Shown here: one piece after another, positions 44,572 through 44,587 of the stretch
How the letters are laid out: each line of letters starts with the position of its first letter
Numbering within the stretch: the first letter of the stretch is position 1
DNA from: Escherichia coli
GTDB taxonomy: Bacteria > Pseudomonadota > Gammaproteobacteria > Enterobacterales > Enterobacteriaceae
Strand: one strand, 5' to 3'
DNA: 64,000 nucleotides
NCBI RefSeq assembly: GCF_003334385.1
Contig: NZ_QOWN01000023.1
Notes under the pieces: model-generated
What the model was told of the DNA's origin: nothing
What the model saw: only the letters and a program-made list of their open reading frames with translations
Database searches by the model: none
Program-made: the position numbers and the translations under genes

Positions 44572-44587
44572 AAGCAAACGTTTGCGA
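44572..44587 (-). promoter_or_regulatory. PurR operator (pur box) in the purMN control region
   Basis: AAGCAAACGTTTGCGA matches the PurR box consensus (aCGCAAACGTTTtCnT) about 70 bp upstream of purM. Confidence 0.75.

Follow-up and report, generated by a model that had tools for sequence, protein, structure and literature searches.

The 16-bp element at positions 44572–44587 of the window, by which we mean the whole 64,000-nucleotide stretch of Escherichia coli DNA analysed here, is almost certainly the PurR operator (pur box) of the purMN operon. A direct read of the window gives exactly AAGCAAACGTTTGCGA on the plus strand, and its reverse complement, TCGCAAACGTTTGCTT, is the form in which the purM sense strand carries it. 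Within these 16 bp is a perfect 12-bp palindrome centred on a CpG, GCAAACGTTTGC. The classical pur box consensus is ACGCAAACGTTTTCNT, an imperfect palindrome of 16 bp with a central CpG. The sequence-only reading had described the site as a near-consensus pur box, and this description held: the letters were confirmed, TCGCAAACGTTTGCTT agrees with the motif ACGNAAACGTTTGCNT of Cho 2011 (PMC3159470) at 13 of its 14 specified positions, and the site is the top match to a symmetrised PurR matrix in the window.

This operator is already known. It is part of the curated E. coli regulatory literature and departs nowhere from the published description; the 16-mer, its genomic position and the operon are the same as those of the E. 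coli K-12 purMN operator of the pur regulon, with no difference (Cho 2011, PMC3159470). The value of the analysis is that of an annotation-quality check only, in which a textbook cis-regulatory site was correctly recognised from raw sequence. A 601-bp region around the box matches E. coli K-12 MG1655 at 100% identity and is annotated there as purM/upp. All 5426 complete E. coli genomes contain this region exactly once, and 5309 of them share the 66-bp promoter/operator at 100% identity.

Promoter and leader of purM

The start of purN overlaps the stop of purM by 1 nt, and in the annotation of the identical MG1655 stretch upp, uraA and hda lie on the plus strand, divergent from purMN. The purR gene was not found in the 64-kb window. 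Mechanical ORF calling extends purM to an in-frame GTG at 44523, which would give 350 residues compared with 345 from the annotated start at 44508 (Table 1). We rejected the upstream GTG as an ORF-calling artefact because both the annotation and the conserved start context favour 44508; the upstream codon falls within the conserved GCGTGGGGA ahead of the annotated start. Measured from the annotated GTG, the pur box lies 64–79 nt upstream with its centre at 71.5, in agreement with the distance of about 70 bp that had been read from the sequence. Two refinements are added to that reading: the operon is on the minus strand, and the mechanistically relevant position is −35 to −20 from the transcription start site (TSS), not the distance to the start codon.

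Table 1. Positions of the pur box and associated features of the purMN operon in the window.
Feature	Position	Strand	Basis and remarks
PurR operator (pur box)	44572–44587	−	Sequence, ChIP-chip motif identity, PWM rank, conservation
Putative extended −10 element, TGtTAGAAT	44559–44567	−	TG at 44567–44566 and TAGAAT at 44564–44559; read from sequence
purM TSS (G)	44552	−	Kim 2012 position converted to window coordinate
purM 5′ untranslated leader	44509–44551	−	Shine-Dalgarno GGGGA; conserved GCGTGGGGA before GTG
purM (AIR synthetase)	43471–44508	−	GTG start; RefSeq annotation of identical MG1655 stretch, ORF; first operon gene
purN (GAR formyltransferase)	42833–43471	−	RefSeq annotation, ORF; second operon gene

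In their genome-wide table of TSSs, Kim et al. 2012 list a single start for purM, at NC_000913.2 position 2,619,175 (+), with 40 reads and a 44-nt 5′ UTR (PMC3415461, supplement file 2). The purM promoter string in the same table contains ...GTCTCGCAAACGTTTGCTTTCCCTGTTAGAATTGCGCCG and ends in ...CTGTTAGAATTGCGCCG (PMC3415461). No purM entry was found in the Cappable-seq supplement. Relative to the mapped TSS, the pur box spans −35 to −20 and overlaps the promoter of this nucleotide-metabolism gene. The sequence TGtTAGAAT, which probably serves as an extended −10 element, is located 7 nt downstream of the box and 7 nt upstream of the TSS. At −35 the promoter has the hexamer TCGCAA, which agrees poorly with TTGACA (three of six positions). 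A generic sigma-70 promoter scan detected no pair on the purM strand; the promoter was recognised by direct reading of the sequence and from the published TSS.

The untranslated leader of purM had no family match in Rfam, and its predicted fold was not better than those of shuffled sequences (z = +1.08). A riboswitch or attenuator in the leader was rejected on these two results, which give no sign of an RNA-level rival to control at the operator.

PurR occupancy and predicted mode of repression

The primary footprinting and operator papers are those of He et al. 1990, Meng et al. 1990, and Smith and Daum 1986, and in vitro binding is reported here at second hand. In vivo, the motif under the purM-purN ChIP-chip peak of Cho 2011 is located at 2,619,140–2,619,155 of MG1655 v2 and is letter-identical to TCGCAAACGTTTGCTT (PMC3159470). 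The comparison with PurR ChIP data proposed in the sequence-only reading therefore returned the site itself, as the reverse complement of the plus-strand letters. The peak (2,618,847–2,619,484) has a log2 value of 2.08 with adenine, which is the ceiling value of the array, and 0.98 without it (PMC3159470). Cho 2011 also lists the IMP-pathway genes, including purMN, as PurR-repressed (PMC3159470).

Independent evidence comes from Liu et al. 2011, who cloned the purM-upp intergenic region on a multicopy plasmid and attributed the resulting protective phenotype to titration of PurR (PMC3266220). Deletion of AAACGTTTGCTT, which comprises 12 nt of the box, from the multicopy clone reduced the titration phenotype, and deletion of purR gave higher survival, as did the multicopy clone (PMC3266220). 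A 2024 review presents purMN as the E. coli example of PurR control and names hypoxanthine and guanine as corepressors (PMC10912719). The claim of purine-dependent repression of purMN by PurR is thus supported by the identity of the ChIP-chip motif, by the titration deletion (PMC3266220) and by the conservation described below.

In the proposed mechanism, when hypoxanthine/guanine is abundant, the corepressor-loaded dimer of PurR, a member of the LacI/GalR family, would bind the 16-bp dyad TCGCAAACGTTTGCTT. The dyad at −35 to −20 abuts the putative extended −10 element, and PurR bound at this position would exclude RNA polymerase, which would lower the transcription of purM and purN. The corepressors assigned to the purMN operator in this scheme are the likely ones from established knowledge of PurR. 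Steric occlusion is the mode of repression suggested by the geometry, by established knowledge and by a general statement of Cho 2011, who describe most PurR sites as located between −35 and −10 and acting on initiation, and who count 14 of 32 regulated promoters with the motif in that interval (PMC3159470). The boxes of purF, purL, purEK, purHD and purT are likewise 16-bp dyads with a central CG, and they lie over the −35 and −10 elements or between them. The roadblock-type boxes of purB and purR share the repressor and the motif with purMN, but they lie downstream of the TSS, within coding sequence, and block elongation (PMC3159470). The purMN box, which precedes +1, should instead interfere with initiation.

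Conservation of the box across gamma-proteobacteria

In a protein-anchored scan, the 400 nt upstream of purM were scored at 80 purM loci from 80 gamma-proteobacterial species. A box of at least 14 bits was found at 60 of the 80 loci, nearly always at −60 to −150 from the start codon; in control chunks of equal size from the same loci, the best score averaged 3.6 bits. Nearly all Enterobacterales have the box, as do most Pasteurellales, the Vibrionales and Aeromonas; among the 80 loci, it was absent upstream of purM in Orbaceae, Alteromonadales, Shewanella, Idiomarina and Pseudoalteromonas. Conservation in related genomes, on which the sequence-only reading had staked the site, therefore extends across four orders. 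Edwardsiella appears to carry two boxes in tandem.

An alignment of 37 Enterobacterales upstream regions contains three conserved islands in an otherwise unalignable background. These are the box (at least 90% per column), the stretch formed by CTGnTAGAAT and TGCGCCG, and the Shine-Dalgarno/start region. The TGnTAGAAT motif is also conserved to at least 90% per column across the Enterobacterales, with the position marked n varying freely. Box and −10 element are separated by exactly 7 nt in 42 loci and by 17–18 nt in 12 Vibrionales loci, in which the sequence of the box is kept. At two Aeromonas loci, the box is still farther from the −10 element than in Vibrionales. Because the Vibrionales retain the box at a different distance from the −10 element, selection appears to act on the dyad itself and not merely on the promoter hexamers.

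In Enterobacterales and Pasteurellales, the box lies at −35 to −20 and abuts the extended −10 element, whereas in Vibrionales it is located approximately one helical turn farther upstream, over the −35 hexamer proper. It is conceivable, but improbable, that these placements reflect repression at different steps, with PurR interfering with spacer/extended −10 contacts in Enterobacterales and Pasteurellales and with −35 recognition in Vibrionales, or that the E. coli site is shared with a second LacI-family regulator.

The dyad might also serve mainly or additionally as the operator of another LacI/GalR-family regulator, such as RbsR or Cra, so that purMN would integrate a second signal. LacI-family operators have a common ...AAC|GTT... 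core, and RbsR has been reported to bind some pur promoters, both of which lend this reading some plausibility. We consider it very unlikely, because the half-site GCAAAC is the PurR-specific form, the agreement with ACGNAAACGTTTGCNT extends to all but one of its specified positions, the PurR ChIP signal of 2.08 is at the array ceiling, and the purM box is absent in lineages that do not have the whole PurR-type motif.

A PurR operator also explains the conserved block better than promoter function does. If the block were only a −35/spacer element for RNA polymerase, its resemblance to a pur box would be incidental; the box does overlap position −35 of the promoter as mapped, and box and −10 element are conserved together. 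However, the match of TCGCAA to TTGACA is limited to three of six positions, the sigma-70 scan returned no pair on this strand, and the conserved TGn of the extended −10 element would lessen the need for a −35 hexamer. What is conserved is a 16-bp dyad that Vibrionales keep at another distance from the −10 element, and the region is occupied by PurR in vivo (PMC3159470). An account by promoter function alone is extremely improbable.

Matrix scores, look-alike sites and other features of the window

A pattern search of the window with up to three mismatches returned one match, the site itself, against 0.93 expected, and is uninformative on significance. Two PurR matrices were used for scoring. 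With a symmetrised, leave-one-out matrix from which the purMN site was omitted, the box scored 18.02 bits, the best in the window (exact p = 4.3e-7); 0.028 such matches would be expected in 64 kb and 0.0001 within the intergenic region of 325 bp. For the asymmetric matrix, 25 ChIP-chip motifs were taken from Table 1 of Cho 2011 (PMC3159470), with the purM site and two other sites of the window excluded. This matrix gave the box 17.46 bits, compared with a null maximum of 15.9 ± 2.0 bits per 64 kb in first-order Markov sequences. This score lies less than 1 sd from the best random match and, taken alone, is only suggestive. The matrix scan put forward with the sequence-only reading thus places the site first in the window when the matrix is symmetrised and is marginal when it is not. 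On the asymmetric matrix, the purMN box scores lower than the purT, purF and purHD boxes (17.5 versus 23–25 bits) on account of the T in position 1 and the TT in positions 15–16.

A look-alike inside uraA at 45921–45936 on the minus strand, ACGGCAACGATTGCGC, reached 17.62 bits with the asymmetric matrix and thereby equals the real operator. The look-alike encodes part of a 16-residue peptide that is invariant across genera, whereas its DNA drifts at synonymous positions and the scores range from 14.8 to −8.5. None of the ChIP-chip regions in Table 1 of Cho 2011 covers this site; the nearest, purM-purN, is approximately 1 kb away. A second, roadblock-type operator in uraA was rejected because of the synonymous drift and the position outside the ChIP-chip regions, and the look-alike is a chance match. 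Its drift, set against the conservation of the purMN box, indicates that the conservation test discriminates. The matrix score failed to separate the true operator from this coding look-alike 1.3 kb off, but promoter position and cross-genus conservation did so. It is therefore position and conservation, not the score alone, that raise the purMN box above chance. That the palindrome arose by chance and has no part in regulation is hardly credible: the asymmetric matrix would yield about one match as good per random 64 kb or so and the match in uraA is comparable, but 0.0001 matches are expected in the intergenic region, the position is conserved across four orders while the flanks diverge, and both a ChIP-chip peak (PMC3159470) and a deletion phenotype (PMC3266220) are associated with it.

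Three further matches to the PurR motif were observed. The sequence GCGTAACCGATTGCAT, at 31566–31581 on the minus strand, lies 54 nt upstream of the guaB ATG (31635) and scores 14–15 bits; it is the guaB-guaA PurR ChIP-chip motif of Cho 2011, with a weak peak of 0.84 in the presence of adenine only (PMC3159470). At 49869–49884, CCGGAAGCGATTGCCT corresponds to the 'yfgO/yfgC' PurR ChIP-chip motif of the same study (PMC3159470). Current annotation starts the coding sequence of yfgO (perM) at 49824, which puts the motif 46–61 nt into that sequence instead of between bepA and yfgO. The third, ACGCGCGCGTTTGCGT at 47456–47471 inside hda, scores 13.5 bits with the PurR matrix, lies outside the published PurR ChIP regions and is probably a chance match.

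The intergenic region that holds the pur box also contains control elements of upp. Regulation of upp by the pur box is unlikely, as 209 bp separate the edge of the box from the upp TSS and the ChIP peak is assigned to purM-purN only. The promoter scan placed a upp promoter, TTGCCG-16-TATAAT, at 44763–44790. The T-run of GATTTTTTTTG (44796–44806) is presumably the substrate of UTP-sensitive reiterative transcription at upp. Transcription of upp has been mapped to start at the first base of this sequence, the G at 44796 (PMC3415461). An FNR-type palindrome at 44738–44751, TTGACTAAAGTCAA, has been reported as an FNR site (PMC3266220).

Compared with the MG1655 record, the window has 17 SNPs, one extra unit of a BIME array and the end of an IS186/IS421 element, with the purMN region unchanged. 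The array, at 3031–3397 between trmJ and iscR, is a tandem repeat of a 91-bp unit of REP-type palindromes with three Rfam naRNA4 matches, and is present in 4.0 copies in the window versus 3 in the compared record. Collinearity with MG1655 extends to 63924, within the hyfA/hyfB region. The remaining 76 bases (63925–64000) form the end of a mobile element that is multicopy and also found on plasmids; E. coli genomes carry a median of 3 copies and a maximum of 22. This element is annotated beside an 'IS4-like element IS421 family transposase', which identifies it as IS186/IS421. The break in collinearity and the mobile-element end indicate that the strain of the window is not MG1655 itself. Between sseB and sseA, the stretch at 11547–12349 contains the sRNA genes ryfA (with the timP toxin ORF) and IS128, and its flanking stretches at 11834–12024 and 12156–12349 are duplicates with approximately 83% identity.
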